Source of the DNA: Candidatus Heimdallarchaeota archaeon
GTDB taxonomy: Archaea > Asgardarchaeota > Heimdallarchaeia > Heimdallarchaeales > Heimdallarchaeaceae
Direction of reading: 5' to 3'
Length of the DNA: 46,223 bases
Assembly: GCA_021399395.1 (NCBI GenBank)
Contig: JAAFKJ010000026.1
Location: forward strand, 1 to 46,223
Part shown: one piece after another, positions 7,677 to 28,527 of the stretch
Position numbering within the stretch: the first letter of the stretch is position 1
Layout: each line of letters starts with the position of its first letter
The notes under the pieces: generated by a model
Told to the model about the DNA's origin: nothing
The model's input: only the letters and a program-made list of their open reading frames with translations
Database searches by the model: none
Made by a program: the position numbers and the translations under genes

Positions 7677-7689
7677 TTACTCACCTTAT

Positions 7690-9751: not shown

Positions 9752-9925
9752 TTATTTTCCAGCTTCTTTTGCCATTGCAGCAGCTGATAGCTTTCTTCTT
9801 ATTCGTCTAGTGGATATCTCGTTGCTAGTTCTTCTAATAGCCCAGAAGACTAAACCTGTAACTAATCCAATTATTCCCATTGTCAAAAACACACTTACTA
9901 TTTCTGGTATAAATGTGGGAGCCAT
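9752..9925 (-). CDS. Small single-TM protein, 57 aa (absent from the ORF track)
   Basis: MAPTFIPEIVSVFLTMGIIGLVTGLVFWAIRRTSNEISTRRIRRKLSAAAMAKEAGK*; AGGTG SD 7 nt upstream; TM segment followed by a basic tail. Confidence 0.7.
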   Translation of the reverse strand: MAPTFIPEIVSVFLTMGIIGLVTGLVFWAIRRTSNEISTRRIRRKLSAAAMAKEAGK

Positions 9926-9998
9926 CTTTTAACACCTACATGAAGTGATTCTCATACATTTTTAAATGTATGGTTCGGTTGTCTGTGTTCTCCCGACT

Positions 9999-10745
9999 TT
10001 AATGAACAAAACTAATTTCCTTTGATTCTTCAATGGTTACTGTCAATTCTTCATTCTCATTATAAAGTATAAGAAGTCCATCATTTCCAATACCCTTACA
10101 CTTATAGGTTTTTGAATTGAAGATGTGTTTCTTTGAATGATTCAGTAGGTTAGTATTATAATCTGAAACAAGATTGGAAATCTGATCGAACATCACTTCT
10201 TCTAGATAGTGGAAAAGGTTTTCTGACAGTTTTTGTCTTAACTCATTTAAGTTAAGCTCAAGATTCAAAGCTTCGAACAAACTAGTTGCTTTAATTTCCT
10301 TTACATCAGCTAAATCTTCTTTAGATGAATTGACATTAAGACCTATCCCAATTAAAAGATGATTCCTACTTTTAGTTAAGATTTCAAGTAGAATGCCACC
10401 AATTTTTTGGTTCTCCAAGTAAATGTCATTTGGCCATTTTATTTCAACATCTATACCACAGAATTCTTTGAGCGTTTTTAGAATGCTCAGAGCTACAGCA
10501 TAATGAATAAATCTCATCTTTTTTGGCTCTAGTAACTCATCAATGACAAATACATACGTTCCATAAAATCCTCCTTTAGGAGAACACCATGTTGAATCAT
10601 CTCTTCCTCTACCAATTGTTTGTTTTTCTGCGAGAATGAGTAGTGGAGTATCTTGGTTCTCACTAATGTGATCCAATACAACATCCATAGTTGATGAAAC
10701 AGAATTATACCTTATAATCCGTAACTTCTCATTATCAAAATTCAC
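9999..10745 (-). CDS. birA: Biotin--protein ligase (no HTH domain)
   Basis: SSTMD, QTIGRGR...W.SP.GG, IKWPNDI, KIGGIL, IGIGLNV; GTG start at 10745 avoids overlap with the divergent gene. Confidence 0.88.
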   Translation of the reverse strand: MNFDNEKLRIIRYNSVSSTMDVVLDHISENQDTPLLILAEKQTIGRGRDDSTWCSPKGGFYGTYVFVIDELLEPKKMRFIHYAVALSILKTLKEFCGIDVEIKWPNDIYLENQKIGGILLEILTKSRNHLLIGIGLNVNSSKEDLADVKEIKATSLFEALNLELNLNELRQKLSENLFHYLEEVMFDQISNLVSDYNTNLLNHSKKHIFNSKTYKCKGIGNDGLLILYNENEELTVTIEESKEISFVH

Positions 10746-10847
10746 AATAAACACTCTACAGCTGATGATTGATATATCTATGCCATGTGCTTTAAAATTT
10801 TTTAGGATACAAGGAAAAGCTATTTTTATAAGACAATTAAAGGTATT

Positions 10848-12425: not shown

Positions 12426-12427
12426 CT

Positions 12428-13936
12428 CTATTTTTTATTGTGACCTTGATGTTTTTCAAGTCTATTTATCTCTCTCCATCTACTCTTTTTCTTAGATATC
12501 TTAGTGAGATTTTTATGTACAAGCTTCTTGTTCCCATTAAGAAAACTATCAGTTGTGATTAATGCGGCGAGTTTCAGTTTCTGATGTTGGTCGATCAATT
12601 TCTTCATTCGATTTTCATTTAAGAACAAGTTTGTAATCTCACCCTCTCGAAATTCTGGTGACTTTAGAATTGCTTTGTGCAGATAAATGTTAGTAATAAC
12701 CCCATCTATCTTTAATTCCTTCAACATATTTAGTGATTTTTCAATAGTTTTTTCTCTAGTTGTGCTTTTAACAACTAGCTTACCAACTAGAGAATCATAC
12801 TTGTTTGGAACCAAATAGTTTGGATAGATGAAAGTGTCGAATCGAACATTTTCTTCTACTGGAACTGTGAGATTTGTAATTATACCTGTTTGTGGATAGA
12901 AACCATTGAATGGATTTTCAGCATTTATTCGAAATTCTATAACATGACCATCAAAGATTACTTCTTCTTGTGTGTAGCTCAGCACTTCATTATTAGCGAT
13001 TCTTAATTGCTCAATGACAAGATCTATTCCCGTAATCATTTCGGTTACTGGATGTTCAACTTGGATTCTTGAGTTGATTTCATTGAAGAACAATTGATTG
13101 TTTTTCCAGAGAAACTCTACTGTTCCAATATTTGTATAGGATAAAGATTTAACTAGTGAACAAACCTTCTGGCCAAGGCTATCTATAATCTCTTTTGAGA
13201 GGAAGGAAGGTGCTTCTTCTATAATTTTTTGATGAGCACGTTGGATTGAACACTCTCTATCACCAAGATGTATGATGTTATCGTGATTGTCAGCTAAGAA
13301 CTGTATTTCAATATGTCTGGGACCTTCCAAGTACTTCTCAAGATATACGGCATTATCACCGAATATTTTTTCTGCAACGGACTGGCATTCAATAAAACTT
13401 CTTTCCAAATCTTCATTCTTTTTAACAACCTCTATTCCTCTTCCTCCCGCTCCATATACTGCTTTAATGATAACGGGATAACCTATAGTATCTGCTGCTT
13501 TTTCAGCTTCAGAAATAGAATATATTACACTAGAAGAACCGGGGATAACTTGAAGACCAATTTCTTTTGCACTTTTTTTTGCTTCAAATTTATTGCTCAG
13601 TCTTTTTAGAACAGATGCTTTAGGTCCAACAAAAATCAGATCATTCTTTTCTACTTGTACTGCAAAATTTGCATTTTCACTAAGAAATCCGTAACCTGGA
13701 TGAATACCATCAGATTGAGATTGGATAGCAATATCTATGATTTTTTCAATATTCAGATAAGTCTCTTGAACTGAACCATTTCCTAAACAGAATGCTTCAT
13801 CTGCCATTTTGACATGAAGTGAAGATGTGTCAATATCAGAGAAGATAGCAACTGTTTGGATATTTAAAAATCGGCATGCTCTTATTATTCTTACAGCAAT
13901 TTCTCCACGATTAGCTATAAGGATTTTTTTAAGCAT
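12428..13936 (-). CDS. accC: Biotin carboxylase subunit, copy 1
   Basis: ILIANRGEIAVR, IHPGYGFLSEN, GAGGRG, RHIEIQ, RECSIQR, RIQVEHPVTE, RINAE, YDSL. Confidence 0.92.
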   Translation of the reverse strand: MLKKILIANRGEIAVRIIRACRFLNIQTVAIFSDIDTSSLHVKMADEAFCLGNGSVQETYLNIEKIIDIAIQSQSDGIHPGYGFLSENANFAVQVEKNDLIFVGPKASVLKRLSNKFEAKKSAKEIGLQVIPGSSSVIYSISEAEKAADTIGYPVIIKAVYGAGGRGIEVVKKNEDLERSFIECQSVAEKIFGDNAVYLEKYLEGPRHIEIQFLADNHDNIIHLGDRECSIQRAHQKIIEEAPSFLSKEIIDSLGQKVCSLVKSLSYTNIGTVEFLWKNNQLFFNEINSRIQVEHPVTEMITGIDLVIEQLRIANNEVLSYTQEEVIFDGHVIEFRINAENPFNGFYPQTGIITNLTVPVEENVRFDTFIYPNYLVPNKYDSLVGKLVVKSTTREKTIEKSLNMLKELKIDGVITNIYLHKAILKSPEFREGEITNLFLNENRMKKLIDQHQKLKLAALITTDSFLNGNKKLVHKNLTKISKKKSRWREINRLEKHQGHNKK

Positions 13937-13957
13937 TTGAGAATATTTCAGAAGATG

Positions 13958-13967
13958 TTTATTAAAT
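13958..13967 (-). promoter_or_regulatory. Archaeal TATA box of biotin carboxylase 1 (likely leaderless transcript)
   Basis: ATTTAATAAA on the minus strand ending about 22 nt before ATG 13936; same spacing as at the paralog. Confidence 0.5.
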
Positions 13968-14106
13968 TCTTTTATATTTCATACTTTGAAGATAATAGAC
14001 CGCATTCTATTGGGTAGAATTTAAAGTTTGTTTCATTATATGAGTAAAGAATTTTTGGTCATGAAAAGAGATGTCGTTTTTATTCGACTTGTAAGATACT
14101 AGTTTA

Positions 14107-15684
14107 ATGTATCAAAGACCTGAGAATCTAAATGAGATTCAAGAAAATAATATATTTAGTACTCTTCATGATAGAAGGAGAAGGAGTAAAGAGGGAGGAG
14201 GTAAAAAGCGAATTGAGAATCAACACAAGAAAGGAAAATTAACTGCTCGTGAAAGGATTGAGCTATTGGTTGATGAAAATTCATTTAACGAAATAGATTC
14301 ATTTGTAACTCACCAGTCTACAAAATTTGATATGGCAGGCACTAAACCTTATGGTGATGGTGTTGTTACTGGTCATGCGAAAATCTCAGGCAGAACTATT
14401 TACGTTTATAGTCAAGATTTTACAGTTTTTGGTGGGAGTCTAGGAAGAGCTCAAGCAACAAAAATATGCAAAGTGATGGATCTCGCAATTAAAACTGGAA
14501 ATCCTATAATTGGTTTGTTAGATTCTGGTGGTGCTAGAATACAAGAAGGAGTGGCTTCTCTAGCTGGTTATGGAGATATCTTTTACAGAAATACACAAGC
14601 ATCTGGTGTTATTCCGCAGATTTCTGTTATCTTAGGACCATGTGCAGGTGGTGCTGTCTACTCTCCTGCCTTAACTGACTTTGTTCTCATGAACAAAGAG
14701 AATTCATTTATGTTTGTTACAGGTCCAGAAGTAGTTAAGGCTGTAACTGGTGAGGAAATTTCTTTCTATGATCTAGGAGGAAGTAATGTTCATAGTAGTA
14801 TAACTGGAGTATGCCATCTAGTTGGAGAAACTGAAGAAGATACATTAGATTTAGTTAGAAAATTAATGGCTTATCTTCCATCAAATAACCTAAATGATAC
14901 TCCTTCAGATCAGCATCTGCTTGATGTAAATACTCAGCAGAATTTAAGAGAACTCATTCCCGCAGAAGAAGATGAACCTTATGATATGAAAAGCATCTTA
15001 GGGATTATAGTTGATTCAGATAGTTTCCTTGAGCTACAAGAAGATTGGGCAAAGAATATAATAATAGGATTTTCTCGATTGAATGGTAGCACAGTTGGTA
15101 TAGTAGCAAACCAACCCTTGTATCTGGGAGGAGCTATTGATTTTAATGCGGCTGATAAAGCATCAAGATTCATAAGATTTTGTGATTCATTTAATATTCC
15201 GATTCTAACATTCGTTGATGTGCCAGGATTCCTTCCTGGAATAAAGCAAGAACATGAAGGAATTATAAGACACGGCGCAAAACTTCTATTTGCCTATTCA
15301 GAAGCTACTGTTCCGAAGATTTCTGTGATTGTTCGAAAAGCCTATGGGGGGGCTTACATTGTAATGAGTTCCAAACATTTGGGGACTGATGTAAACTTAG
15401 CTTGGCCTACAGCTCAGATAGCTGTAATGGGATCCGAAGGGGCATGTAGGATACTCTATCGCAGTAAATTGATAGGGGTTGATAATCCAGAACAAATCTT
15501 AAAAGAATTCACTGAAAAATTCAAGGAAGAATTCGCTAATCCTTACCAAGCAGCTGAATTAGGTTATGTTGACAAAGTCATTTTTCCAGAGGAGACGAGA
15601 AACGAAATAATTGTCTCTCTCAGTATTTTGAGGAATAAAAGAGAACAAACACCCAGGAGGAAACATGGAATTTTTCCAGTTTAG
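14107..15684 (+). CDS. pccB: Acyl-CoA carboxylase carboxyltransferase subunit, copy 2
   Basis: Same motif set and same length (525 aa) as copy 1; ends 9 nt before the megasynthase start. Confidence 0.92.
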   Translation: MYQRPENLNEIQENNIFSTLHDRRRRSKEGGGKKRIENQHKKGKLTARERIELLVDENSFNEIDSFVTHQSTKFDMAGTKPYGDGVVTGHAKISGRTIYVYSQDFTVFGGSLGRAQATKICKVMDLAIKTGNPIIGLLDSGGARIQEGVASLAGYGDIFYRNTQASGVIPQISVILGPCAGGAVYSPALTDFVLMNKENSFMFVTGPEVVKAVTGEEISFYDLGGSNVHSSITGVCHLVGETEEDTLDLVRKLMAYLPSNNLNDTPSDQHLLDVNTQQNLRELIPAEEDEPYDMKSILGIIVDSDSFLELQEDWAKNIIIGFSRLNGSTVGIVANQPLYLGGAIDFNAADKASRFIRFCDSFNIPILTFVDVPGFLPGIKQEHEGIIRHGAKLLFAYSEATVPKISVIVRKAYGGAYIVMSSKHLGTDVNLAWPTAQIAVMGSEGACRILYRSKLIGVDNPEQILKEFTEKFKEEFANPYQAAELGYVDKVIFPEETRNEIIVSLSILRNKREQTPRRKHGIFPV

Positions 15685-15693: not shown

Positions 15694-18600
15694 ATGAAAA
15701 CAAGAAGACAAATAATAAACGAGATAGACCCAACTAGAATCATTTGGGGATATTCTCCTAAAGGTATAAGCAATCCACAATTATCTATTGAACTTTCCCA
15801 GAAAGGTGGAGTAGGTCTAGTAGATCTTGAAGGGTTAGATGAACAATCAATTTCAAACATTTTAGAAACTTGTAGTAAAAAAATTCCAAAAGAAAATATT
15901 TGGGGTATAAAACTTTCAGATGTTTCTCAGATTGAAGTGGTAAATAAGATGGAGCATATTCCTATTTTGATAATTCCTAAAAAAATCGAAATAGAGCAGT
16001 TAATGAGTCTAACTTGTGAGTATGATTGGCTTATTGCCGAAGTACGTAATGTAAGTGAAGCACAAGAGAAAACTGAATGGGCTGATTTCTTCCTTGTGAA
16101 AGGTTTTGAATCTGGAGGAAGTATCGGTGAAAAGTCATCTTTTATTCTAATTCAAGAATTTAACGAAGTAGGTTACCCATTCATTATACAAGGTGGAATC
16201 GGTGTTTATAACATAATCAGTGCTCTAATTGGTGGTGCTTTAGGAGTAGTACTTGAAGAACAACTTTTACTACTTCCTGAATGTCCTCTTACAGCTGAAA
16301 CTAAAAAATATCTTGCTTCTCTTGATGAAAATGACACATACATCATCGGTGAAAGTTTTGATAGAAAATTTAGAATAACGGGAAAGATTGCAAACAAATG
16401 GATAAGAGAATTCAAAACAATCGAAAAAACTACAACACAAGATAACTTTCAAGAACTCTCTCAAAAGATAGAGGAAGTTTCTAGAACATCTGCTTTTCTT
16501 GCAGATCAGGAAATAAAAAATTCTTTTATTCCTCTTGGTGTAGGATTGAGGTTTGCAAGTTTTATATCAGACAAATTCGGTGACTTAACCGCTTTCCTGA
16601 GCGGTGTTAAACAGATTATAAGAACCCAAATGGTAAATCTTTCAGACAATTGGTCATTTTCAGAAGAAAACGAATTTGCTATAAGTCTTGGGATCAAACT
16701 TCCAATTATCCAGGGACCAATGGCAAACATAACTGATTCAGCTGATTTTGCTTTACAGGTTTTTAATGAGGGTGCACTTCCAGTTTTAGCCTTCGGAGGA
16801 TTGTTGAAAGAAGAAGCAGAAATTTTATTCAAAGAATTACATGAGAAGTATCCAAAAAGTGCTCCTTATGCTGGAGGAATCATCGGTTTAGAAGTCATGA
16901 AAGAAAGACGAGACGCGCATATCTCATTGATTCAAGAAAACAAAACACCATTATGTTTGGTAGCAGCAGGATCAATACAGTTAGCATCAAGAATTCAGAA
17001 AGCTGGGACAAAAGTTATACTTCACACACCTGCTTTATCCTTCTTCAAAGATGCGATTCAAAATAAAATTGAATATTTGATTTTAGAAGGAAGCGAATGT
17101 GGAGGACACATTGGAATATTAACTTCATTCACTCTTTGGGAATCAATAATTCAGTATGTTGAAAGAGAGAAGAGTAATATCTCTGACAAATTAAAGATTG
17201 TATTTGCTGGAGGGATAAGTGATGATAGAAGTACAGCTATGCTAGCTGGAATGGTATCAAATCATCTTGATTATATCTCCCCAGGAATTCAAATGGGGAC
17301 TGCTTACCTACTTACTGAAGAAATTGTTAAGTGCAAAGCTTTAACCTCAATATATCAAGAACATGTTCTAAATTCTTCTGAAACAAAAGTGATAGGAACA
17401 ACAGTAAATACCAGAGCTAGAGCTATTCCTTCTGAGTTTGTTGAAACGACATTGAAACTAGAATTGGAAAGAATCAGAGAAGGTATGTCTATCCATGATA
17501 GAAAGAAAGTATATGAGAAAGACAATTTAGGCGCTTTACGAATTGCAGGTAAAGCTGAAATTTGGAATGAGAAGTATAAACCTGGAGGAGCTTCTACCCA
17601 ATTTGTTTCAGCAAGCAAGAAGATTCAAGAGAGTAAAGGCTGTTATATGGCAGGCGAGCTTATAGGTCTTAAAAGAAACATTCTGAGAATTAGAGACTTA
17701 CATCATGATGTTGTTAAGTCAGGAAAAATTTATGCCACGCAACAAATTGCTGAACTTGAAAAGATTCATCTCGATGCAGTGACTTCAGATGTCCAGATCA
17801 AAGAGTCTATTTCACTTCCTATAAAGAATAGAGTAGCAATAGTCGGGATGGGATGTATTCTTCCAGATGCTGAAAATATTAGCCAATTCTGGACCAATAT
17901 TATACAGAAAAAATATTCAATCACTGAAATCTCTGACGAAAGATGGAAAGCCTCACTGCATTTTGATGAAGATAAAACAGCTGAGAACAAAACCTATTCA
18001 AAGATTGGTTCATTTATCAAAGAATACAATTTTGATTCAATTAGATATCGCATTCCACCAAAAATAGCTGAAAGAATGGATGATGTTCAAAAATGGTCAT
18101 TAGATTCAGCGAGACAAGCTCTAGAAGATGCTGGAATTCCGACTGATGGCAAATTAAAATTACCTATTGCAGTAATTGTGGGAAACTCTTTGGGGGGTGA
18201 AATTCAACGAAATACCAACAAGTTATTCTTTGTACCAGAATTCATTGAAGAAATAAAAACAAACATAGTATTTCAAGAATTAACTGAAGAAAAACAAAAG
18301 AATATGATCAACCATCTATTAGATTTTTCAAAAAAGCACTATCCATCTATTACTGAAGATTCGATGCCAGGTGAATTATCAAATATAATTGCTGGAAGAA
18401 TAGCAAATGTGTTCAATTTGATAGGTAAATCTATGACAACAGATGCTGCTTGTGCATCTAGTGTGGCAGCGATTGATACAGCTGTAAATTCATTACTCTC
18501 GGGGGAAATTAATGTTGTTTTAACAGGAGGAGCTGATAGATCTATGGATGTTGCTACCTATGTTAAATTCAGTAAAATTGGTGCTTTATCTGGGACAGGA

Positions 18601-21600
18601 ACTAGACCTTTTGATGAAAATGCAGATGGATTTGTTATGGGCGAAGGAGCTGGATTTATTGTCCTAAAGCGACTGGAAGATGCACTGACTGATGGTAATA
18701 AGATTTACGCAGTAATTTCTTCTATCGGTTCATCTTCTGATGGTAAAGGAAAGGGAATAACTGCACCAAATCCAGAAGGTCAAAAACGAGCTATAGAAAG
18801 AGCAATGGAAAAAGCGCAAATTGATACAAATGAAGTTGATTACATTGAAGCACATGGTACTTCAACAGTAGTTGGGGATGCAGTTGAACTTCAAGTTCTA
18901 GAGGGAATTTTTAAAGACAGAACAAGTGATCACAAATTAAATGTGAGTTCAATAAAGAGTCAAATAGGTCATCTAAAGAGTGCATCTGGTATTGCATCAA
19001 TAATTAAAGCTTCATTGGCACTTTATCATAAGAAACTACCTCCATCAATAAATGTGGAAAAACCAAATCCAAATATTGATTGGAATAATTCTAAGTTAAG
19101 AATAAACACAGAAGTTTCAGAGTGGAACTCCTCTTCATCTGTTGTAGCCAGAGTTGGTGTATCTGCATTTGGCTTTGGTGGTGCTAATTACCATGCTATA
19201 TTGGAAGAATTTAATCCAGCAAAAATACAATATGAAAAGAAACCACAATTATCAATATCTGAAAATATCCAAGAGGAAATTGACCAATCACAAATTTCTC
19301 TTCAGAGCATAAAACCCAAACTATGTTACATGTTTACTGGTCAGGGAAGTCAATATCTTGGAATGGCTAAACAGCTATATGAAAACTCAGAAATTGTTAA
19401 GGAATACTTTGAAAAAGCTGAACAAATCTGGTATGGTTATTACACTTATAGCTTCAAAGAAATTGTTTTTGGTTCAGAAAAACTCTCTAATGAATCAAAT
19501 AAGAAGAGACTAACTGATACAAAGTTTACCCAACCAGCGATTTTCGTTGTAGATGTCTCTATTGCTAGCTTGTTAGCAGAAGAAGGAATCGAACCAAATA
19601 TAGTCGCAGGCCATAGTTTGGGTGAGTATGCGGCTTTAGTTATAGCAGGAGCACTTTCTTTCGAAGATGGGTTAAAAGCAGTCATTGAACGTGGAAGATC
19701 TATGAGTCGAGCTGGGAATTCTGTACCAGGTGCAATGGCAGCTATACTTGCACCGATTAACCAAGTTCATGAAATCGTGAAAGGAGTGAAAAATTGTTAT
19801 GTCACTGTCGCAAATTACAACTCTAAAAACCAAACAGTTGTTTCTGGTGAAATAGAAGGAATTGAGCAAGTATTAGAAATTTCTAAACAGAAAGGAATTA
19901 CTGCTAAGCGATTAAATGTATCAACTGCATTTCATTCAAAGATTGTTAAATCTGTTGAAGAAGAGATGGAAAAAGTACTTTCTAGAATAGAATTTAATGA
20001 ACCAAAGATCCCAGTTTATAGTAATGCTACAGGAAAAGTTTATCCACCAAAACCAGAAGAAATAAGAAAATTACTTGTTCAACAAATTAGTTCATCAGTT
20101 CTTTGGGTTAACGAAATTCAAAATATCTACAATGCAGGAGCGAGATTCTTTGTAGAGATAGGTCCGAAAAAGGCTTTATTCTCATTTGTTAAAGATATTC
20201 TGCAAGATAAAACAGATATCTCGGCATTTACTACATTGATACCAAAACAAAACGAAATTGAAACAGTAGAAACTACGGTGAATCAGATACGACAGTTTAT
20301 TGATCCTGCTTCTCTAGCTGATTTAGACCCACAATTCAAGAAAATTAAAACAGAACAAGAAATAGTATTTCCTGGAGAAATAGCTGTTTCACCAGATTCT
20401 GATTTTCAAAGTTTTGTTAGAAATAATAGTAATTATCTTGAAAATATTTTGAAATCTGGGTATGAACTTTATTCTAATTATTTAGGAGAAAATGAAGAAG
20501 TCAAATCAGCTAAATCTGTAGCTCCAGTTAGACATCAGCTGATAGGAGTGACAGGAGTTGGAGTTGGTTTTCCAGGAAAAAGTAGAAATGTTTTTGATGA
20601 TGGGAATATCGATGCAATTCTCTCAGGGGAGAATCTCATTGATTCAATAAGAGAAGATATTCGACAAAACATGTTAGACAAGAATATCAATCGTCTTGTT
20701 AAATCTCCAGAAGGAATAGCTTCATTTGAAGAAATTGATGAATTAACAAAAGTAATTAATTTAGCTGGTCAATTGGGGAATTTCGATCCTGTTGGAGATT
20801 TTAAATTAGATGAAAAACTTTTGAGTTCTCTTGACATAACCTTTCAATTAGCAATCTGTGCAGGTTTAGAAGCTTTAAATAATGCAGGTATCCCATTAGT
20901 GAAATCTTCTTTCAGAACTTCTACTGGAAAAGTTCTAGAAGGCGACTGGGCATTACCTGAACCTCTTCAAGATGAAACTGGTATAATATTTGCTTCTGCT
21001 TTTCCAGGATATGATAATCTTGTCAAGGAAATACAAGAACAAACTAACTCAGATAATGATAAGAAATTTAGCAGAAATTTCTTATTCAAAATTTTATCAA
21101 TGGGTCATTCTCAATTTGCTCAGTTGATTAAAGCGAAAGGACCTAATACACAGATTAATGCTGCATGTGCCTCTACTACTCAAGCGATTGGTATTGCAGA
21201 AGACTGGATTCGAATTGGTCGATGTAATAGAGTTATTGTAATAGCAGCTGATGATGCATCTAGTGAAAATTTGCTCCCATGGCTTGGATCTGGATTTCTA
21301 GCTGCTGGAGGTGTAACAACTGAAGAAAAAGTTGAAAATGCCGCGCTCCCATTTGGTAAAAACAGACATGGTCTGATAATAGGATCTGCTGCAGCTGCTC
21401 TGATACTTGAGAATGAAGATGCCTATAATATGAGAGGAGTTAAACCCATTGTTGACCTGATTGGTTCATCATTTTTGAATAGTGGATTTCATGGTTCAAG
21501 ATTGGATGTTCAACATATTTCCAAAGCTTTCCAAAACTTTGTGGAAAAGATTGAAGAGCAATACCATATTCCAAGAAAGAGTTTAGCAGAAGAAGGAATG

Positions 21601-24600
21601 TTTGTTTCTCATGAAACTTATACTCCAGCAAGAGGAGGAAGTGCTGAATCTGAAATTGAAGCACTGAAAAGCGTTTTTGGAAAAGACGCTTGCAAAATTA
21701 CTATAGTAAATACAAAAGGTTTTACTGGACATGCAATGGGAGCAGGAATTGAAGAATGTGTTGCTATTAAATCAATGGAGAAAGGTAGAATTCCGCCTAT
21801 AGCAAATATTGCTAAAATAGATCCTTTGTTCTCTGAATTACGGTTTTCTGAAGGAGAAAATCGTAGGGTAAAATACGCAATTCGATTAGCAGCTGGATTT
21901 GGATCTCAAGTAGCATTCACTGCTTTTAGGCTTAATACCTTTGAAGATAGGTATGATTTGATTCTTCATGATGAATGGTTATCTGGATTAGGTGGTAATA
22001 TGGGTAGAACTTTTTTGGATGGAAGAGTCTTGAAAATGACAACAAAATCTAAATTGGAGATTTCCACATCAGCAAAATCCAAATCCCATGATATCGCTAA
22101 GAACTTAGTATCTACAGATATTTTACCAAGTGTTATCTCAATAATCTCAGAAATCACTGGATATGAGACAAATCTGATCGAAGCTGAAATGCATCTAGAA
22201 GAAGATCTAGGAATTGACACAGTTAAACAAGCTGAGATTTTTGGAATTCTTCGGGAAAAGTGGGATTTAGAATTAGATGATACAGTAAGTCTTGCAGAAT
22301 TTACAACACCTCAAAAAATTGCTATATATGTTCAAAGCAATGTTGGTGAGATAGGTTCTTCTGAACCAGTAGACCCCCCTAATTTGATGGAAACTTCTGA
22401 AGATTTGAACAGAAAAATCAGAGAGGTTATATCAGAAACCACAGGATATGAACAAAATCTAATAGAATTTGATATGGATCTAGAGGAAGATCTCGGTATA
22501 GATACAATAAAACAAGCTGAAATCTTTGGAGATATAAGAGAGATATATGATCTCCCCATTGATGAATCAATAAGTTTAGCAGAATTCAGAACAATCAATG
22601 ACATAGCCGGGTATGTCCACCGATATGTTGGAGATGTACCATCTATTACTTCTGAAATTTCAGAAAGTGTTGAAGAATTACCTAGAACTGAGAAGGAGCA
22701 AGACCTTGAAGACACTGTCAGAATTGATAAACTGATTACGGTTCCTATTCCTTTGGATAAGAGCAAAGCTGATAAAGTAAACTTAACTGAGCTTTCTACT
22801 TTAGTAATTGATATCAATTCCTCATTAGGTGAGGAGTTAGCAAGTTCTCTAAAAGAAAGAAAAGCGAATTATAAGATCTGTAAGTTGTTAAAAGAAAAAT
22901 CGGAATTAGAAGAAACAAATTTTGATCTATTTATCCTGTTGTTACCAGATCCAATCTCAGAACCTGGTTTGATTGACCAAGAAATCTACACTAAGATATT
23001 TACATTGTTTCAGTCACTAGAACTGAACTCAAATCAGAGAATTATTGCAGTATCAAAAGAAAATTATTTTGGTTTAAGAAAAGATGCAAATCCTATCTCT
23101 GGAGGAATTTCTGGTTTTGTGAAAACAATAGGTATAGAGTTTGAAATGGCCTATAAGCACATTTATTCTGAGAACATAAAATACATTATTCAAGAGTTGG
23201 AATATTGGGATACAAATGTTGAAATTGCATATGAAAAGAAAAATAGATTTACACTCGCAAATCTGGATATAAGTGACTATCTTACTCAATCTTCAAAAAT
23301 TCATGTTAAAGGCAGCGATTTACTACTTGTTACTGGGGGAGGTAGAGGAATTACCTTCAAATGTTTAGAAGCACTCTGCACAATTGTAAAATCCAAGGTA
23401 GCTATTTTTGGTATAGAAGACATTTCTAATGTTGATTCGGAAGCTCTTCTCTTATCTCCTGAAGAATTAGAGGAAAGAAAGCAGAAACTGATAGAAGAAC
23501 TGAAAGAAACTGAAGAGAAAGTCACTCCAGTTCTTATTGACAGACATTGGAATAATTTCTTATTCGGACTTGAAGTAGTAAGGAATCTTGAAATTTTAAG
23601 AAAGAAGAAGATAAAAGTCGAATATAGAAGAGTTGATGTTACAAATACAAAAGATGTAGAAGAAGCTATAAGAGATATTGAAAGTCATTTCGAGACCTCT
23701 GTTAGTCACATCATTCATGGAGCCGGTCTAGAGGAATCCAAGTCATTTAAAAAGAAGAAACTTGACTTTTCGAGTCTCATTGTTTCAGTAAAGGTTGAAG
23801 GTATTTGGAATATACTCAACTCAATTGATACAAAGAAACTGAAACGAGTAGTATGTTTTACATCAATTGCAGGTAGATATGGTAATAGAGGACAAGTAGA
23901 CTATTCATTCGCTAATGGGTACCTTTCAAGGCTTTGTTGGAAGTTGAATCAACAAGGAGTTTCAGCTGTAGCCTGTGATTGGTCAGCATGGGGAGGTGTA
24001 GGAATGGCAACAAGAGGGTCTATTATGGATATATTAACCTCTCAAGGTATAAATCCTATTCCTGTGCAAGAAGGTACAGAGAGTTTTGTCAAACTCTTCT
24101 TAAACACAATTGGAGATGAAGTAATCGTATCATGTGGTCTTGGACCTTTTGAAAAGATGTCTGAAATCAAATCAAAAATCAAAGAAAGTAAATATCCCTT
24201 AATTGAGAGTTTGGAGTATTATGATTCAACTTTCTTTACCAGAAAAGCAATTAATTCAGAGAATGACCTATATCTAAATGATCATCAAATACAACAAACA
24301 CCGATATTTCCAGGTGTGATGGGATTAGAATTTTTTGCAGAAACTTTTGAAATACTATCATCACAAAAACCTGTTAGTTTTTCAAACGTAGAATTTAATA
24401 CTGCTCTAAAGATTCAACAATCTCAAACAAAGGAGATTTATGTTGAATACAAATCCGATATAGGGAAAATGAAATTAAAATCAGATTTCATCGCAAAGAT
24501 TGATCCAAGTAAAAGAAGAGAAATTGAGCATTTTACAATAAATGTTGATGTTTCTACAAGGAGAAAGAAAGCAAAGAAATCAGAAAATGAAATTCGCGAA

Positions 24601-25773
24601 TCTGATATCAATCTCTTATCAAAAGAGGATATATATTCGTTCTTCTTCCATGGAGAGAGTTTTCAAGTATTAGAGAAATTAATTAATCTAGATGGAAAGA
24701 AAGCTATTTCGCAGATAGAAATTCCTGACAAAAATCTTTTCTCTGATAAAAGGAGTAAAACTACTCTGAACCCTCTTGCAATTGAAGCAGCATTACAGAC
24801 AGCGGGATTATATGACTACATTGTCAATAGCAAAACTTCTTTGCCATCAAAAATAGAGACAATAACCTTCTACAATAATAAAAAACCAAAATATATTGTT
24901 TCAATATTCACTGGAATTAATACAACTCATAGTACATTTGATGTAGAAATATTAGATGAAAAAAGAAACATAATCGCTAAACTAGACGGCTTGGGGATGA
25001 TACATACTCAACTCAACTTCAAGGAAGAATCAGAAATTAAAGATAAACTTCAGGAAACTTTCCGATACTGGGAAATCACTAACTCACTAAACCATGATAA
25101 TTTCAGAATAATTCCAGTCCGAATAGTAGCTTCTCTTCTTTCAACTAATCCCAAAACTGTTTTGTCTTCCTTGACATCTAAAGAAAAAGAACGATTTGAT
25201 ACATTCAAGAACGAGAAACGAAGAATTGAGTATCTTTCTGGTGTCATTGCATCTAAGGAACTCTATTCTCTTCTAGTTAATAAAGAGAACAAACCTAAAG
25301 AAATTGAGATTAGAAAAGAAAAGAAAGGTCGACCATACTTTTATGATCTTAAGAAGGATGAACCAAGTAATTTACATCTTTCAATAACTCATTCTGGAGA
25401 ATTTGCTATTGCAGCTGTTGGTCAATCACCTATTGGAATTGATATCGAAAAAATAGAAGAAAGAAGTGAGTCTTTCTACAAAGAAGCTTTCACAGAAAAA
25501 GAAAGAAATGAGATCTCATCAGATGCTGAAAAAGGAACAATATATTGGACAATTAAAGAAGCAATAACTAAAGCACTTGGTGAAGGTTTACACCTTAATC
25601 TACATGATATCGAAATTTCAGAAAACCAAGAAAAATCCTCTTACACGATTGGATTCTCTTCTAAGGTAGCTGATACTGTACCGTATGATGCTGATTCATT
25701 TGAGATAACGAACAAGAGTTTCCAGAATTATACGATTACATATTGTGAGATTCGACAGGAGGATAAAAAATGA
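15694..25773 (+). CDS. Single-chain type I FAS/PKS megasynthase: ER*-ER-KS-AT-KS-ACP-ACP-KR-DH-PPTase
   Basis: FabK/PfaD-like IIQGPMA, EGSECGGH, AGGI, GIQMGT; KS1 DAACASS/EAHGTST/GHLK; AT GQGSQ/GHSLG/AFHS; KS2 NAACAS/SHETYT/GHAMG; two LEEDLGIDT.KQAE ACPs; KR VTGGGRGI/HGAG/GQVDYSFAN; DH DHQIQQTPIFPG; Sfp-type PPTase GRP/SITHS/GIDIE/WTIKEAITKALG; GGTGA SD at 15684-15688. Confidence 0.93.
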   Translation: MKTRRQIINEIDPTRIIWGYSPKGISNPQLSIELSQKGGVGLVDLEGLDEQSISNILETCSKKIPKENIWGIKLSDVSQIEVVNKMEHIPILIIPKKIEIEQLMSLTCEYDWLIAEVRNVSEAQEKTEWADFFLVKGFESGGSIGEKSSFILIQEFNEVGYPFIIQGGIGVYNIISALIGGALGVVLEEQLLLLPECPLTAETKKYLASLDENDTYIIGESFDRKFRITGKIANKWIREFKTIEKTTTQDNFQELSQKIEEVSRTSAFLADQEIKNSFIPLGVGLRFASFISDKFGDLTAFLSGVKQIIRTQMVNLSDNWSFSEENEFAISLGIKLPIIQGPMANITDSADFALQVFNEGALPVLAFGGLLKEEAEILFKELHEKYPKSAPYAGGIIGLEVMKERRDAHISLIQENKTPLCLVAAGSIQLASRIQKAGTKVILHTPALSFFKDAIQNKIEYLILEGSECGGHIGILTSFTLWESIIQYVEREKSNISDKLKIVFAGGISDDRSTAMLAGMVSNHLDYISPGIQMGTAYLLTEEIVKCKALTSIYQEHVLNSSETKVIGTTVNTRARAIPSEFVETTLKLELERIREGMSIHDRKKVYEKDNLGALRIAGKAEIWNEKYKPGGASTQFVSASKKIQESKGCYMAGELIGLKRNILRIRDLHHDVVKSGKIYATQQIAELEKIHLDAVTSDVQIKESISLPIKNRVAIVGMGCILPDAENISQFWTNIIQKKYSITEISDERWKASLHFDEDKTAENKTYSKIGSFIKEYNFDSIRYRIPPKIAERMDDVQKWSLDSARQALEDAGIPTDGKLKLPIAVIVGNSLGGEIQRNTNKLFFVPEFIEEIKTNIVFQELTEEKQKNMINHLLDFSKKHYPSITEDSMPGELSNIIAGRIANVFNLIGKSMTTDAACASSVAAIDTAVNSLLSGEINVVLTGGADRSMDVATYVKFSKIGALSGTGTRPFDENADGFVMGEGAGFIVLKRLEDALTDGNKIYAVISSIGSSSDGKGKGITAPNPEGQKRAIERAMEKAQIDTNEVDYIEAHGTSTVVGDAVELQVLEGIFKDRTSDHKLNVSSIKSQIGHLKSASGIASIIKASLALYHKKLPPSINVEKPNPNIDWNNSKLRINTEVSEWNSSSSVVARVGVSAFGFGGANYHAILEEFNPAKIQYEKKPQLSISENIQEEIDQSQISLQSIKPKLCYMFTGQGSQYLGMAKQLYENSEIVKEYFEKAEQIWYGYYTYSFKEIVFGSEKLSNESNKKRLTDTKFTQPAIFVVDVSIASLLAEEGIEPNIVAGHSLGEYAALVIAGALSFEDGLKAVIERGRSMSRAGNSVPGAMAAILAPINQVHEIVKGVKNCYVTVANYNSKNQTVVSGEIEGIEQVLEISKQKGITAKRLNVSTAFHSKIVKSVEEEMEKVLSRIEFNEPKIPVYSNATGKVYPPKPEEIRKLLVQQISSSVLWVNEIQNIYNAGARFFVEIGPKKALFSFVKDILQDKTDISAFTTLIPKQNEIETVETTVNQIRQFIDPASLADLDPQFKKIKTEQEIVFPGEIAVSPDSDFQSFVRNNSNYLENILKSGYELYSNYLGENEEVKSAKSVAPVRHQLIGVTGVGVGFPGKSRNVFDDGNIDAILSGENLIDSIREDIRQNMLDKNINRLVKSPEGIASFEEIDELTKVINLAGQLGNFDPVGDFKLDEKLLSSLDITFQLAICAGLEALNNAGIPLVKSSFRTSTGKVLEGDWALPEPLQDETGIIFASAFPGYDNLVKEIQEQTNSDNDKKFSRNFLFKILSMGHSQFAQLIKAKGPNTQINAACASTTQAIGIAEDWIRIGRCNRVIVIAADDASSENLLPWLGSGFLAAGGVTTEEKVENAALPFGKNRHGLIIGSAAAALILENEDAYNMRGVKPIVDLIGSSFLNSGFHGSRLDVQHISKAFQNFVEKIEEQYHIPRKSLAEEGMFVSHETYTPARGGSAESEIEALKSVFGKDACKITIVNTKGFTGHAMGAGIEECVAIKSMEKGRIPPIANIAKIDPLFSELRFSEGENRRVKYAIRLAAGFGSQVAFTAFRLNTFEDRYDLILHDEWLSGLGGNMGRTFLDGRVLKMTTKSKLEISTSAKSKSHDIAKNLVSTDILPSVISIISEITGYETNLIEAEMHLEEDLGIDTVKQAEIFGILREKWDLELDDTVSLAEFTTPQKIAIYVQSNVGEIGSSEPVDPPNLMETSEDLNRKIREVISETTGYEQNLIEFDMDLEEDLGIDTIKQAEIFGDIREIYDLPIDESISLAEFRTINDIAGYVHRYVGDVPSITSEISESVEELPRTEKEQDLEDTVRIDKLITVPIPLDKSKADKVNLTELSTLVIDINSSLGEELASSLKERKANYKICKLLKEKSELEETNFDLFILLLPDPISEPGLIDQEIYTKIFTLFQSLELNSNQRIIAVSKENYFGLRKDANPISGGISGFVKTIGIEFEMAYKHIYSENIKYIIQELEYWDTNVEIAYEKKNRFTLANLDISDYLTQSSKIHVKGSDLLLVTGGGRGITFKCLEALCTIVKSKVAIFGIEDISNVDSEALLLSPEELEERKQKLIEELKETEEKVTPVLIDRHWNNFLFGLEVVRNLEILRKKKIKVEYRRVDVTNTKDVEEAIRDIESHFETSVSHIIHGAGLEESKSFKKKKLDFSSLIVSVKVEGIWNILNSIDTKKLKRVVCFTSIAGRYGNRGQVDYSFANGYLSRLCWKLNQQGVSAVACDWSAWGGVGMATRGSIMDILTSQGINPIPVQEGTESFVKLFLNTIGDEVIVSCGLGPFEKMSEIKSKIKESKYPLIESLEYYDSTFFTRKAINSENDLYLNDHQIQQTPIFPGVMGLEFFAETFEILSSQKPVSFSNVEFNTALKIQQSQTKEIYVEYKSDIGKMKLKSDFIAKIDPSKRREIEHFTINVDVSTRRKKAKKSENEIRESDINLLSKEDIYSFFFHGESFQVLEKLINLDGKKAISQIEIPDKNLFSDKRSKTTLNPLAIEAALQTAGLYDYIVNSKTSLPSKIETITFYNNKKPKYIVSIFTGINTTHSTFDVEILDEKRNIIAKLDGLGMIHTQLNFKEESEIKDKLQETFRYWEITNSLNHDNFRIIPVRIVASLLSTNPKTVLSSLTSKEKERFDTFKNEKRRIEYLSGVIASKELYSLLVNKENKPKEIEIRKEKKGRPYFYDLKKDEPSNLHLSITHSGEFAIAAVGQSPIGIDIEKIEERSESFYKEAFTEKERNEISSDAEKGTIYWTIKEAITKALGEGLHLNLHDIEISENQEKSSYTIGFSSKVADTVPYDADSFEITNKSFQNYTITYCEIRQEDKK

Positions 25774-26534
25774 AAATAGAGCACTCTGATATTAATTTCA
25801 GAGAAGAAACAATTAATGGAGTTCTTTATCTTCCAGAAGATAAGAATCCTTCCCCTTTGATAGTTCATCTAAACGGGATGCCAGGGTTAGAACCAGAGAA
25901 AGAAGGTGAAAGATTTGCTAGAGACATGGTGGATAATGGGTTCGCTTACTATGCTTTCGATTATACGGGAGTTCGAAATAGTACAGGAACATTTGAGTAT
26001 TATTATTCTCAAGAAAATATCAATCAAGTAATCTCCTATCTTGTCCATCATCCTAAAATTGATCCTACACAGATTGCTCTAATAGGAGAAAGTTTTGGGG
26101 GAGCGATGGCTATATCACACACAGCGCGGGATCCAAGAGTTAAGTGTTTAGCCATAAGATCTCCTGTATATGATACAGATAAAGTTGCAAAGTTGAAAAT
26201 CTTTGACGGTTTATCCCAACTATGGAAAAGAAGTAAACAGATGAGGTTTCCAGAGGTTCATTTGAAGAAATGGTTCAAAGAACAAACATCTCAATACAAT
26301 CCCTCGAAACTCATTTCAAAAATCAGCTGCCCAATCCGATTTATAATAGGAACAAGTGATGAGATCCTAGCTGTAGACCAAATAGAGGAATTTTATGGAA
26401 AACTCTCCCCAGATATTGACAAAGAAATGAAAGTAGTTGAAAAAGCCAATCATAATTTCTCGAACGAGAAACACTTTGAAATTATGAAAACATATGTAAT
26501 AGACTTTTTCAGAGAAGTACTCACAGCGAATTAA
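25770..26534 (+). CDS. Alpha/beta hydrolase (candidate thioesterase)
   Basis: GESFGG nucleophile elbow, GTSD acid, ANHNF His; ATGA overlap with the megasynthase stop; GGAGG SD. Confidence 0.85.
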   Translation: MKIEHSDINFREETINGVLYLPEDKNPSPLIVHLNGMPGLEPEKEGERFARDMVDNGFAYYAFDYTGVRNSTGTFEYYYSQENINQVISYLVHHPKIDPTQIALIGESFGGAMAISHTARDPRVKCLAIRSPVYDTDKVAKLKIFDGLSQLWKRSKQMRFPEVHLKKWFKEQTSQYNPSKLISKISCPIRFIIGTSDEILAVDQIEEFYGKLSPDIDKEMKVVEKANHNFSNEKHFEIMKTYVIDFFREVLTAN

Positions 26535-27010
26535 GGTTGAATAATTAGAAGATGCTGATCTTGCACAACATTATCATTTTCTTTCACTGAAATTTTGAGA
26601 ATTTTCCCTGAACTGGGGGCAAAGATCCTATTTCTCATTTTCATAGCTTCAAGTATCAGAAGTTCTTGATCTTTTGATACCTCTTCTCCTTCTGTCACTA
26701 AAATTTTAGTTATCTTTCCTGGGATTGGAGCTGAGATTTTTATGTCTTTTTTTTCAATTTCACTTGATTTGGTGCTTAATACAGGTATGTAAGGTTTGAT
26801 TGTAAATTGCGTCTTCTCTCCATTGACAAAAAACTCATCGTTTGAAACTTCCACTGTGAAAGTGTGCCCATCAACATCTACCTTGTAAATAGAATTTATA
26901 CCTTGTTTGACTTCAGCTGAGAAAACTTCTTCATCTATGCAAATGTCACCGTTAGGAAGAATTTCAACAATATATTCTCTATCTCTAAACATGACTTTTT
27001 TCTTAGACAA
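26531..27010 (-). CDS. accB: Biotin carboxyl carrier protein
   Basis: APIPGKI..V..G..V, ILEAMKM.N biotinylation motif; TTG start at 27010 with AGGTG SD just after the BC2 stop (alternative ATG at 26992). Confidence 0.9.
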   Translation of the reverse strand: MSKKKVMFRDREYIVEILPNGDICIDEEVFSAEVKQGINSIYKVDVDGHTFTVEVSNDEFFVNGEKTQFTIKPYIPVLSTKSSEIEKKDIKISAPIPGKITKILVTEGEEVSKDQELLILEAMKMRNRIFAPSSGKILKISVKENDNVVQDQHLLIIQP

Positions 27011-27024
27011 ATATGACACCTGTG

Positions 27025-28527
27025 TTATCGATAACCATTTTGCTGTTCTAATTTGTTTTGTTCTCTCCATCTATTATAATCTTCTCTACTTCTTTGAATA
27101 TTGGAGATATCATAATCTTGTTTCTGCTTGTGAATTGTATTGGCAATAAGTAAAGCTACAAGTTTTAGTTTTTCGTAGTGATTGAGTATCTGGTTTATTT
27201 TTGTTCTTTCCAAAAAATCAGTTGTTATTTGTCTATGTTGAAACTCTTCTGTTTCAATAATTGCTTTATGAAGAGATATATTTGTGGTTAATCCTGATAT
27301 AGCTAGTTCATTTAAAGCTAAGCGGGATTTTTGTATTGCATCCTCTCTATTTTCTCCTCTAATAATTAGTTTACCAATGAGAGAGTCATATTGGTTTGGG
27401 AGATTGTAATTGGGATAAATGAAGGTGTCAAATCTTACATCATTCCCACCAGGTATATTCAAACTTAGAATTTTACCAGTTTGAGGATAAAATGCCTTTA
27501 ATGGGTCTTCAGCATTAATCCTAAATTCTAATGCATGACCTGAGAACTTGATATCTTTTTGAGAATAAGATAGTTCTTCATTGTTAGCTACTCTCAACTG
27601 TTGAACTACCAGATCTATTCCGGTAATCATCTCTGTGACAGGATGCTCTACTTGAATTCTAGGATTTATCTCGTTGAAATACAATTTTCTATCTTTCCAA
27701 AGAAATTCAGCTGTTCCAGCGTTTCTATATGAGAGTTTTTTAGCTAAATTACAAATCTTTTCACCAAGACTATTTCTCCTTCTTGCTGATATGAACGAAG
27801 GAGCTTCTTCGATAATCTTCTGATAGGATCTTTGAATTGAACATTCTCGATCTCCAATATGGATAACATTACCAAAGTTATCTGCTAAAAATTGAATCTC
27901 GACATGTCTAGGGGCATGAATGTATTTCTCAATGAAAACCTCACTGCTTCCAAAGAATTTGCTAGCTATTGTTTGACAACCCATCAGACTTATTTCTAAA
28001 GCATCTGGATTTTCAACAATTTCCATCCCTCTTCCCCCTCCACCGTAAGCTGCCTTGATGATAATTGGATAACCTATCTTATTGGTTATTTGCTCAGCTT
28101 CAGAAACTGAATTAATGTAACCTGATGAACCTGGAACTGTCAGAATTCCTGCTTCCTTAGCCATCTTCTTGGCTTCAATTTTATTTCCTAATCTGTGAAG
28201 AATTGAAGGAGACGGACCAACAAAAATCAATCCATTTTTTTCAACCTCTTCTGCGAAAATTGCGCTCTCACTAAGAAATCCATATCCTGGATGAATGGCA
28301 TCAGACTGAGATTTAAGAGCTATCTCAATGATTTTTTCAATATTTAGATATGTGTCTTGTACATCCCCACTACCTAAGCAGAATGCTTCATCCGCCATCT
28401 TAATATGGAGAGAAGTAGAATCAATATCAGAAAAAATAGCTACCGTTTTGAAATTAAGAAGTCGACAGGCTCTTATGATTCTGATAGCTATCTCTCCGCG
28501 GTTAGCTATAAGGATAGTACTGAGCAT
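27025..28527 (-). CDS. accC: Biotin carboxylase subunit, copy 2
   Basis: ILIANRGEIAIR, IHPGYGFLSE, GGGGRGM, NPRIQVEHPVTE, YDSLIGK. Confidence 0.92.
   Translation of the reverse strand: MLSTILIANRGEIAIRIIRACRLLNFKTVAIFSDIDSTSLHIKMADEAFCLGSGDVQDTYLNIEKIIEIALKSQSDAIHPGYGFLSESAIFAEEVEKNGLIFVGPSPSILHRLGNKIEAKKMAKEAGILTVPGSSGYINSVSEAEQITNKIGYPIIIKAAYGGGGRGMEIVENPDALEISLMGCQTIASKFFGSSEVFIEKYIHAPRHVEIQFLADNFGNVIHIGDRECSIQRSYQKIIEEAPSFISARRRNSLGEKICNLAKKLSYRNAGTAEFLWKDRKLYFNEINPRIQVEHPVTEMITGIDLVVQQLRVANNEELSYSQKDIKFSGHALEFRINAEDPLKAFYPQTGKILSLNIPGGNDVRFDTFIYPNYNLPNQYDSLIGKLIIRGENREDAIQKSRLALNELAISGLTTNISLHKAIIETEEFQHRQITTDFLERTKINQILNHYEKLKLVALLIANTIHKQKQDYDISNIQRSREDYNRWREQNKLEQQNGYR

Follow-up and report, generated by a model that had tools for sequence, protein, structure and literature searches.

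Carrier domains in fatty-acid, polyketide and non-ribosomal peptide synthesis take up phosphopantetheine on an acceptor serine that is regarded as universal. A locus of Candidatus Heimdallarchaeota archaeon raises the question of whether threonine can serve in its place. The window, by which we mean the whole 46,223-nucleotide stretch of contig JAAFKJ010000026.1 (assembly GCA_021399395.1) that was analysed, encodes a megasynthase of 3359 residues. It carries enoyl-reductase (ER), ketosynthase (KS), acyltransferase (AT), ketoreductase (KR) and dehydratase (DH) domains, two acyl carrier protein (ACP) domains together with a C-terminal phosphopantetheinyl transferase (PPTase). A sequence-only reading of the window had pointed out that both ACPs have threonine at the phosphopantetheine site, and had suggested that the PPTase in the same chain may prime it. 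We consider it likely that these residues, Thr2176 and Thr2271, are working phosphopantetheine sites primed by the system's own Sfp-type PPTase, and we propose from their sequences that they belong to a distinct ‘Thr-type’ class of carrier domains. The features on which this rests are:

15694..25773, + strand: megasynthase open reading frame (ORF), 3359 residues, ER(NMO)-KS-AT-KS'-ACP1-ACP2-KR-DH-PPTase (ORF list, translation, Pfam, motifs)
22126..22353, + strand: ACP1, residues 2145-2220 (PF00550, 24.6 bits; profile-search envelope)
22408..22641, + strand: ACP2, residues 2239-2316 (PF00550, 35.2 bits; AlphaFold2 model; matches to solved ACPs)
25114..25770, + strand: C-terminal Sfp-type PPTase domain, residues 3141-3359 (PF01648, PF22624, match to Sfp)

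Two carrier domains with threonine at the attachment site

The two carrier stretches were scanned separately, and both score above the curated cut-off of 20.8 bits for PF00550 (PP-binding), at 24.6 and 35.2 bits. ACP1 reads LEEDLGIDTVKQAE, in which the codon ACA at 22219-22221 places Thr2176 at the phosphopantetheine position; ACP2 reads LEEDLGIDTIKQAE, and here ACA at 22504-22506 encodes Thr2271 at the same position. The assignment made from the sequence is correct for both domains, and the site positions and codons were reproduced by a script. ACP1 and ACP2 have 45 of 70 aligned residues in common (64%). In HMMER alignments the threonine falls on the serine of the D-S motif in PigH, the Thermotoga ACP 6LVT and AcpM, such that the conserved D-S serine acceptor of PF00550 carriers is replaced by threonine in both domains. 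The AlphaFold2 model of ACP2 (mean predicted local distance difference test score, pLDDT, 84.2) shows the four-helix ACP fold, with helices at 2-15, 36-50 and 66-77. Helix II opens with the threonine, position 36 of the model, as is usual for the attachment residue of an ACP. Among the matches listed, solved ACPs superpose on this model with template-modelling scores of 0.72-0.83 and root-mean-square deviations of 1.4-2.7 Å.

Contigs assembled from four other public runs, belonging to two studies of sediment and cold-seep metagenomes, show 0 differences over the stretch; the X3, X4 and X6 contigs cover both threonine codons, and X5 spans neither in full. A locus search seeded with the two window ACPs, using less conserved patterns, yielded 17 Heimdallarchaeota loci that carry the same gene at 38-74% protein identity. 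Threonine occupies all 36 ACP sites of the window and these loci, with 23 ACT, 8 ACA and 5 ACC codons, and all 146 ACP sites in 80 loci from soil and peat metagenomes, where all four threonine codons are used. Serine is one base change away from the threonine codons at the site, and the codon changes synonymously while the amino acid does not, which indicates selection on the residue. Recoding or an alternative genetic code was ruled out, since threonine is spelled by three or four different codons across lineages. The idea of a sequencing or assembly error, or of a decaying pseudogene, is already refuted by the related loci and the contigs of the other runs, and it also conflicts with the single unbroken frame of 3359 codons seen in the ORF list and translation; we put its probability at practically nil. 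The earlier claim that the threonines are neither error nor decay is in this way borne out.

Threonine as a trait of a clade

How far threonine extends beyond Heimdallarchaeota was surveyed in two ways. A word-seeded search with the ACP region, in which candidates were chosen by shared 5-residue words, returned 356 proteins; the best 120 of these contain 475 ACP domains by a profile built from the two window ACPs, 438 with Thr, 29 with Ser and 8 with another residue, and 104 of the 120 are all-Thr. ACP2 was also run exhaustively with HMMER against 1.84 billion cluster representatives, with 4316 matches reaching E <= 0.001 and 2224 reaching E <= 1e-10. From the 150 best came 137 new proteins, for a combined set of 257 with 1066 ACP domains, of which 783 have Thr, 273 Ser and 10 another residue, a Thr:Ser ratio that is no census because both samples are biased. 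By protein, 190 are all-Thr, 51 all-Ser and 16 mixed. The prevailing motif is DLGIDTVKQAE in the Thr domains and mostly the Pfa-type DLGIDSIKRVE in the Ser domains. A large Thr class of carrier domains exists beyond doubt. The sequence-only reading had named serine in all close homologues as the observation that would overturn it; the close homologues surveyed are almost all of the Thr type, and the claim therefore survives. Named sources of Thr-type proteins include Heimdallarchaeaceae, Lokiarchaeota/Promethearchaeia, Thermoplasmatota, Elusimicrobia, Myxococcota, Clostridia and Alphaproteobacteria, and Desulforegula conservatrix (P0092) is a named source organism with Thr-type ACPs.

The residue at the site is tied to its surroundings in helix II. 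Where the site is Thr, position +1 is Val in 93%, +3 Gln in 98% and +4 Ala in 85% of domains; where it is Ser, +1 is Ile in 94%, +3 Arg or Lys in 90% and +4 Val in 80%. Pairing of the site with position +3 gives 770 domains with Thr and Gln, 14 with Ser and Gln, 246 with Ser and Arg/Lys and 0 with Thr and Arg/Lys, so that 770 of the 784 domains bearing the +3 Gln signature have Thr. The Thr-type signature can be written E-x-D-L-G-[IV]-D-T-[VI]-K-Q-[AV]-E, and the motif around the threonine is 95-100% conserved. Elsewhere in the Thr-type domains no other column holds Ser in more than 24% of sequences, which leaves no hidden alternative acceptor serine. On a tree of 986 distinct ACP domains, built with the site column masked, 10 Ser/Thr changes are needed, compared with a mean of 203 and a minimum of 193 over 50 shuffles of the labels; as related sequences share labels, this describes clustering and not a probability. 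Judged by the counts and the tree, threonine at the site is a clade trait.

Serine does re-appear inside the Thr clade. The first ACP is Ser and the rest Thr in P0004, P0044 and P0059, and P0069 and P0166 are all-Ser; each of these five proteins has a fused PPTase. In a sister genus of the same family, the 3519-residue ortholog from genome G074 (L160, G074:C1:563000-581000, ORF 4378-14934) is 52% identical to the window protein over the first 2395 aligned residues, and its ACPs run Ser-Thr-Ser (DLGIDSIKAAE, DLGIDTVKQAE, DLGVDSIKIAE) ahead of the same fused PPTase. The megasynthase of L161 (G003) has Thr-Thr-Thr. The occurrence of Ser and Thr ACPs beside the same fused PPTase argues that one PPTase may serve both residues.

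The probable priming enzyme and the competing explanations

The C-terminal domain scores 63.9 bits against PF01648 (cut-off 25), and its N-terminal half 25.6 bits against PF22624 AASDHPPT_N, slightly below the cut-off of 27. Its best solved relatives are the Sfp structures 1QR0 and 4MRT (E 3.7e-10), in an alignment that spans both halves (Sfp residues 15-175). The motif scan located ITHSG at 3231, GIDIE at 3248 and WTIKEAITK at 3285. All 10 Heimdallarchaeota orthologs compared keep the His, the Asp-x-Glu, the Trp and the Lys-Glu-Ala..Lys without change, and conservation of the same catalytic residues is 98-100% among 100 PPTases that are linked to synthases of the Thr type. The window's own assembly amounts to 2.8 Mb and is 81.8% complete, and its sole PF00550 and sole PF01648 matches fall in the megasynthase ORF; hence the PPTase has no other visible substrate in this genome and the carriers no other visible PPTase. 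The earlier remark that the window holds no Ser-type ACP elsewhere thus extends to the remainder of this assembly.

A complex of the PPTase domain with CoA, Mg and ACP2 was modelled with an author-supplied ortholog alignment for each protein. The three ipSAE values, 0.81, 0.81 and 0.80, exceed the best of three controls (0.49); in calibration, 58 of 80 solved complexes attained the score mark, as did 2 of 110 mismatched pairs, and we take a pass to mean likeness to a known docking mode, not priming. Agreement in contacts between the runs is 98% or more, and the partner pLDDT is 85 or above. In the model the ACP2 threonine (position 36) contacts PPTase position 149, the catalytic Glu of K-E-A. 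Helix II positions +1 and +4, whose residues change together with the choice of Ser or Thr at the site, contact PPTase residues 112, 121, 124, 125 and 145. The lone PF01648 and PF00550 matches, the invariant catalytic residues and the modelled contact between threonine and catalytic Glu together give indirect support to the in-cis PPTase as the probable priming enzyme.

The sequence-only reading had further suggested that threonine could explain why a dedicated PPTase is fused, and had called for a survey of the co-occurrence of GIDT with fusion. Such a survey among 120 long homologues shows a fused PPTase in 68 of 111 Thr-only proteins and none fused in the other 43, part of which are contig-end fragments; all-Ser (P0069, P0166) and mixed Ser/Thr proteins are also fused. 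One unfused subgroup is represented by the 80 metagenome loci, 29 of them with a full-length match and 20 of those 29 judgeable. All 20 have a separate PPTase in the cluster, in frames of 242-338 codons that match the fused-domain profile at E ~1e-34 to 1e-42. It lies 5.4-5.8 kb downstream, after a 1886-residue single-chain acetyl-CoA carboxylase, in 19 loci and is directly adjacent in one; the remaining 9 of the 29 stop less than 5.6 kb downstream, too early to be judged. With threonine found in the absence of fusion, and fusion found with Ser and mixed proteins, threonine alone does not explain the fusion, and this part of the earlier proposal falls. Thr-type ACPs are thus accompanied by a dedicated carboxylase and by a dedicated PPTase, which belongs to a single clade and is either fused or adjacent.

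Among 201 sampled Asgard genomes, 61 have a match to PF01648 and 48 a match to PF00550. By our reading of the tables, a frame of at least 800 residues contains a PP-binding match in 31 genomes, and in 27 of the 31 a PPTase match lies on the same contig (G192, one of the 27, is Ser-type and resembles a non-ribosomal peptide synthetase, NRPS); the other 4 are at contig ends or split across contigs. In G192, a member of another Asgard family, L030 (G192:C21:39494-42685) holds a 2141-residue frame with the NRPS-like carrier ELGGNS (Ser), and a 263-residue PPTase frame is on the same contig. Small stand-alone PPTases of ~150-190 residues occur in other Asgard families (L025 860-3393, L029, L071, L075). 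In ten stretches from five genomes such PPTases are not beside a megasynthase; in eight sampled Loki-type genomes (G005, G016, G055, G062, G136, G139, G167, G172) they lie ~2 kb from small PP-binding ORFs, and the four of these small ACPs that were inspected have a WDSM motif, that is, Ser. By its motifs the stand-alone PPTase with its WDSM ACP is a separate, putatively Ser-type carrier system. The window's genus also has a conserved ACP-like ORF of 82-101 residues (L059-L070) with weak PF00550 scores of 22-32 bits. The copy in the window's genome (L079 1498-1749, equivalent to G000:C149:9321-9566) adjoins a luciferase-like monooxygenase gene and reads ELKMNE in place of D-L-G-x-D-S, with neither Ser nor Thr. 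As the site is Lys or Glu throughout, these ORFs were ruled out as Ser-type ACPs.

Several points weigh against priming at threonine. No report of Thr-linked phosphopantetheine, and no mention of a threonine acceptor or of the Thr-type motif, was found in the full-text literature, with subscription journals and supplementary files outside reach. One study states of the E. coli variant ACP(S36T) that it ‘cannot be post-translationally modified by 4'-PP’ and fails in complementation (PMC3340395), and the same variant serves as an apo control in another (10.1101/2025.06.16.659903). No PPTase residue was found that explains acceptance of Thr, the catalytic motifs of the 100 Thr-linked PPTases being Sfp-like; a Gly precedes the catalytic Asp in 99% of them and an Ala in both all-Ser fused proteins, with n=2 only for the latter. 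With the assembly at 81.8% completeness, a Ser-type ACP or a second PPTase may sit on missing DNA. Where a protein mixes Ser and Thr ACPs, it could be the Thr copies that are inactive, an idea that cannot hold for the 190 all-Thr proteins. The homologue sets are biased by the use of shared 5-residue words and by a summed-score ranking that favours multi-ACP proteins. Finally, the docking model resembles the solved complex of Sfp with a peptidyl carrier protein (PCP; 4MRT), the calibration set was without ligands and the alignments were our own, hence the restricted meaning given above to its score.

If threonine is not primed, the Thr-ACPs would be structural or regulatory pseudo-carriers, and the chemistry would run on an undetected Ser-ACP or on CoA thioesters. 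ACP-independent archaeal fatty-acid synthesis on CoA thioesters has been proposed, the genome is just 81.8% complete, and in relatives that mix Ser and Thr ACPs the Ser copies could carry the load. The E. coli S36T variant, the identical Ser-to-Thr change at the identical position, was reported as unmodifiable and non-functional (PMC3340395). That change was engineered into a Ser-type scaffold served by AcpS, whereas the change in the window is natural, conserved, and accompanied by helix II changes and its own PPTase. Pseudo-carriers also sit badly with the 190 of 257 proteins that are Thr-only, including all 17 Heimdallarchaeota loci, with a motif around the threonine conserved at a level needless in a dead domain, and with an intact, conserved PPTase kept fused or adjacent that has no other detectable substrate, the stand-alone ACP-like ORFs of the genus having Lys or Glu at the site. 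We regard pseudo-carriers as unlikely.

The threonine might instead be primed and yet be a frozen accident of the clade's founder, in which case any Sfp-type PPTase would suffice and there would be neither advantage nor co-adaptation. The ordinary catalytic motifs of the PPTase are in keeping with this, as is the tolerance of Ser within the clade (the 14 Ser+Gln domains, the all-Ser fused P0069 and P0166, and the Ser-Thr-Ser arrangement in G074). Against this, Thr is kept in 770 of 784 domains with +3 Gln though Ser is one base away, it is found across archaea and several bacterial phyla in all four codons, and the helix II contact residues co-vary with the site; a dedicated PPTase is present even in apparent bacteria, where their own AcpS would be expected. 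An accident of this kind seems to us rather improbable. Very improbable, and with nothing specific in its favour, is a different modification of the threonine, or carrier domains that work with no prosthetic group at all: KS, AT, KR, DH and ER domains need thiol-tethered substrates, their motifs are intact here, and the PPTase is the sole linked modifying enzyme.

Priming by the system's own PPTase, the explanation we prefer, would proceed as follows. The PPTase would use the conserved Asp/Glu of GIDIE together with the Glu/Lys of WTIKEAITK to bind CoA and Mg2+, would dock onto helix II of each apo-ACP and would move 4'-phosphopantetheine onto the threonine hydroxyl. The holo-ACPs would then serve an iterative, fully reducing KS/AT/KR/DH/ER cycle, with malonyl-CoA provided by the flanking biotin-dependent carboxylase and the product freed by the translationally coupled alpha/beta-hydrolase.

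The megasynthase, its neighbours and its relatives

The other catalytic domains of the megasynthase are:

16684..17475, + strand: enoyl-reductase-like domain of NMO/FabK type, residues ~331-594 (PF03060, 82 bits; TIGR03151 FabK stretch 331-594)
17827..19059, + strand: ketosynthase 1, residues 712-1122, Cys-His-His present (PF00109, PF02801, motifs)
19327..20265, + strand: acyltransferase, residues 1212-1524, with GHSLGE and AFHS (PF00698, 172 bits; motifs)
20641..21993, + strand: second KS-like domain, residues ~1650-2100 (second PF00109/PF02801 stretches; PF08545 match at 1821-1857)
23314..23994, + strand: ketoreductase, residues ~2541-2767 (PF08659, 94 bits; GGGRG at 2548, YSFAN at 2737)
24238..24996, + strand: dehydratase of polyketide synthase (PKS) type, residues 2849-3101 (PF21089, PF14765; His motif at 2864)

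A motif scan found DAACASS at 917, EAHGT at 1052, GHSLGE at 1306 and AACAS at 1823 in the KS/AT/KS' region, and GGGRG at 2548, YSFAN at 2737 and HQIQQTPIFP at 2864 in KR and DH; the second KS-like domain retains its Cys (AACAS), SHE and GHAMG. With the PPTase motifs given above, this agrees with the earlier statement that the remaining catalytic motifs are intact. Residues 1-330 (15694-16680), N-terminal of the FabK-like ER core, show just a second weak NMO stretch. KS, AT, KR, DH, ER and ACP with their catalytic motifs in a single system make up the set of a fully reducing type I fatty acid synthase (FAS) or PKS, and by this domain set the megasynthase is a fully reducing type I FAS/PKS whose iterative use is putative. 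The best NCBIfam match is TIGR02813 omega_3_PfaA (E 1.2e-256), at 854.9 bits and therefore short of the 1010.1-bit cut-off for membership of the PfaA family.

The flanking genes that bear on the function of the megasynthase are:

25770..26534, + strand: alpha/beta-hydrolase, 254 residues (Pfam hydrolase families including BAAT_C)
14107..15684, + strand: carboxyltransferase subunit of acyl-CoA carboxylase, directly upstream of the megasynthase (PF01039, 610.7 bits; syntenic)
10848..12425, + strand: second carboxyltransferase copy (PF01039, 609.2 bits)
12428..13936, - strand: biotin carboxylase copy 1 (PF02786, PF00289, PF02785)
26531..27070, - strand: biotin carboxyl carrier protein (PF00364; syntenic)
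27025..28527, - strand: biotin carboxylase copy 2 (PF02786, PF00289, PF02785; syntenic)
9999..10871, - strand: biotin/lipoate protein ligase family (PF03099, 74.3 bits)

Window positions 9999-15684 and 25770-28527 thus hold a full biotin-dependent carboxylase set, including extra carboxyltransferase and carboxylase copies. The start of the hydrolase gene overlaps the megasynthase stop, and the hydrolase is a candidate chain-releasing thioesterase. It lies just 3' of the megasynthase in all 13 Heimdallarchaeota loci that extend to this point and are at least 55% identical (L003-L005, L007, L008, L010-L016). The carboxyltransferase-megasynthase pair is kept wherever the 17 loci reach that far, and the hydrolase, biotin carboxyl carrier protein and carboxylase follow in those at least 55% identical that do so; in L018 and L019, the most distant pair of loci, no downstream match to these three was found. 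A single-copy version of the carboxylase/megasynthase/hydrolase block recurs in most of the 17. By its gene content the block looks like a self-contained locus for acyl-chain synthesis in an Asgard archaeon, and the megasynthase has, on prediction, every domain needed to build chains from malonyl-CoA in an iterative, fully reducing way. The product is most likely a fatty acid or a similar reduced chain, predicted to be released by the hydrolase.

In the soil and peat subgroup, the cluster at L118 2543-26557, on a metagenome contig, starts with a WS/DGAT acyltransferase, an Fe-S/CCG protein, an electron transfer flavoprotein (ETF) alpha-like protein, an acyl-CoA dehydrogenase and the Thr-type synthase, followed by the 1886-residue single-chain acetyl-CoA carboxylase (eukaryote-type ACC_central), a stand-alone PPTase and a GMC oxidoreductase. 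This gene set suggests wax-ester or storage-lipid synthesis. Elsewhere in the window are small GTPases, Gtr1/RagA-like and Arf-like (33045-33629 and 39740-40294; eukaryote-signature proteins), the archaeal Nre (31682-32929), a methylene-H4MPT dehydrogenase (145-978) and an aldehyde:ferredoxin oxidoreductase (37236-39479), all of which fit an Asgard archaeal origin of the window.

By analogy, the system may work like a megasynthase of the polyunsaturated fatty acid (PUFA) synthase or enediyne synthase (PKSE) type with an in-cis Sfp-type PPTase. The PUFA synthase PfaA has tandem ACPs, and its Sfp-type PPTase, PfaE, is a discrete protein. The window protein has in common with PfaA the order KS-AT-(ACP)n-KR-DH and tandem ACP repeats within a shared frame, TGY...LE.DLG[IV]D-x-[IV]K..E, and the class closest to the Thr-type domains is that of the Ser-type relatives, which have DLGIDSIKRVE. 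It differs in that its ACPs have Thr with a TVKQAE helix II in place of Ser with SIKRVE, in fusing ER, a second KS and the PPTase into one chain, in having two ACPs only, and in the absence of a FabA-type dehydratase from its Pfam matches. Enediyne synthases of the CalE8/SgcE type have the order KS-AT-ACP-KR-DH-PPTase, and their ACPs use Ser. They too are iterative type I synthases with a terminal in-cis Sfp-type PPTase by which their own ACP is primed, as is proposed for the window protein, but they have no ER or second KS, and their products are polyenes instead of fully reduced chains. The Bacillus subtilis enzyme Sfp (1QR0, 4MRT) has the motifs H-S-G, P-I-G-I-D-I-E-K and W-x-x-K-E-[SA]-x-x-K in common with the window PPTase, and the predicted docking through ACP helix II resembles its complex with a PCP; the characterised substrates of Sfp carry Ser, whereas the window PPTase is fused and its sole detectable substrates carry Thr. 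A Heimdallarchaeota PKS with a PUFA-like KS is noted in PMC7472256.

Motif definitions, annotation rules and the Ser-to-Ala and Ser-to-Thr ‘dead’ controls all rest on a serine acceptor. Thr-site carriers appear from these surveys to be the rule in a large, unstudied enzyme family whose members usually bear their own priming enzyme. To our knowledge, ACP and PPTase are otherwise mostly absent from Asgard archaea of the Heimdall/Loki type and from Thermoplasmatota. On balance it seems probable to us that O-(4'-phosphopantetheinyl)-threonine is real, widespread and previously unrecognised, and that an orthogonal carrier/PPTase pair moves together with an acetyl-CoA carboxylase of its own, as a self-contained factory for acyl chains, which would give these archaea a fatty-acyl route in the bacterial or eukaryotic style. 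If this is true, a large enzyme family would bear a new post-translational modification, PPTase chemistry would be broader than assumed, and the system could give an orthogonal ACP/PPTase pair for synthetic biology. The complete locus of acetyl-CoA carboxylase, megasynthase and hydrolase is conserved in Heimdallarchaeota, a group named among the closest relatives of eukaryotes. Fatty acyl synthesis by such archaea thereby becomes a testable question, one that bears on the origin of eukaryotic membranes.

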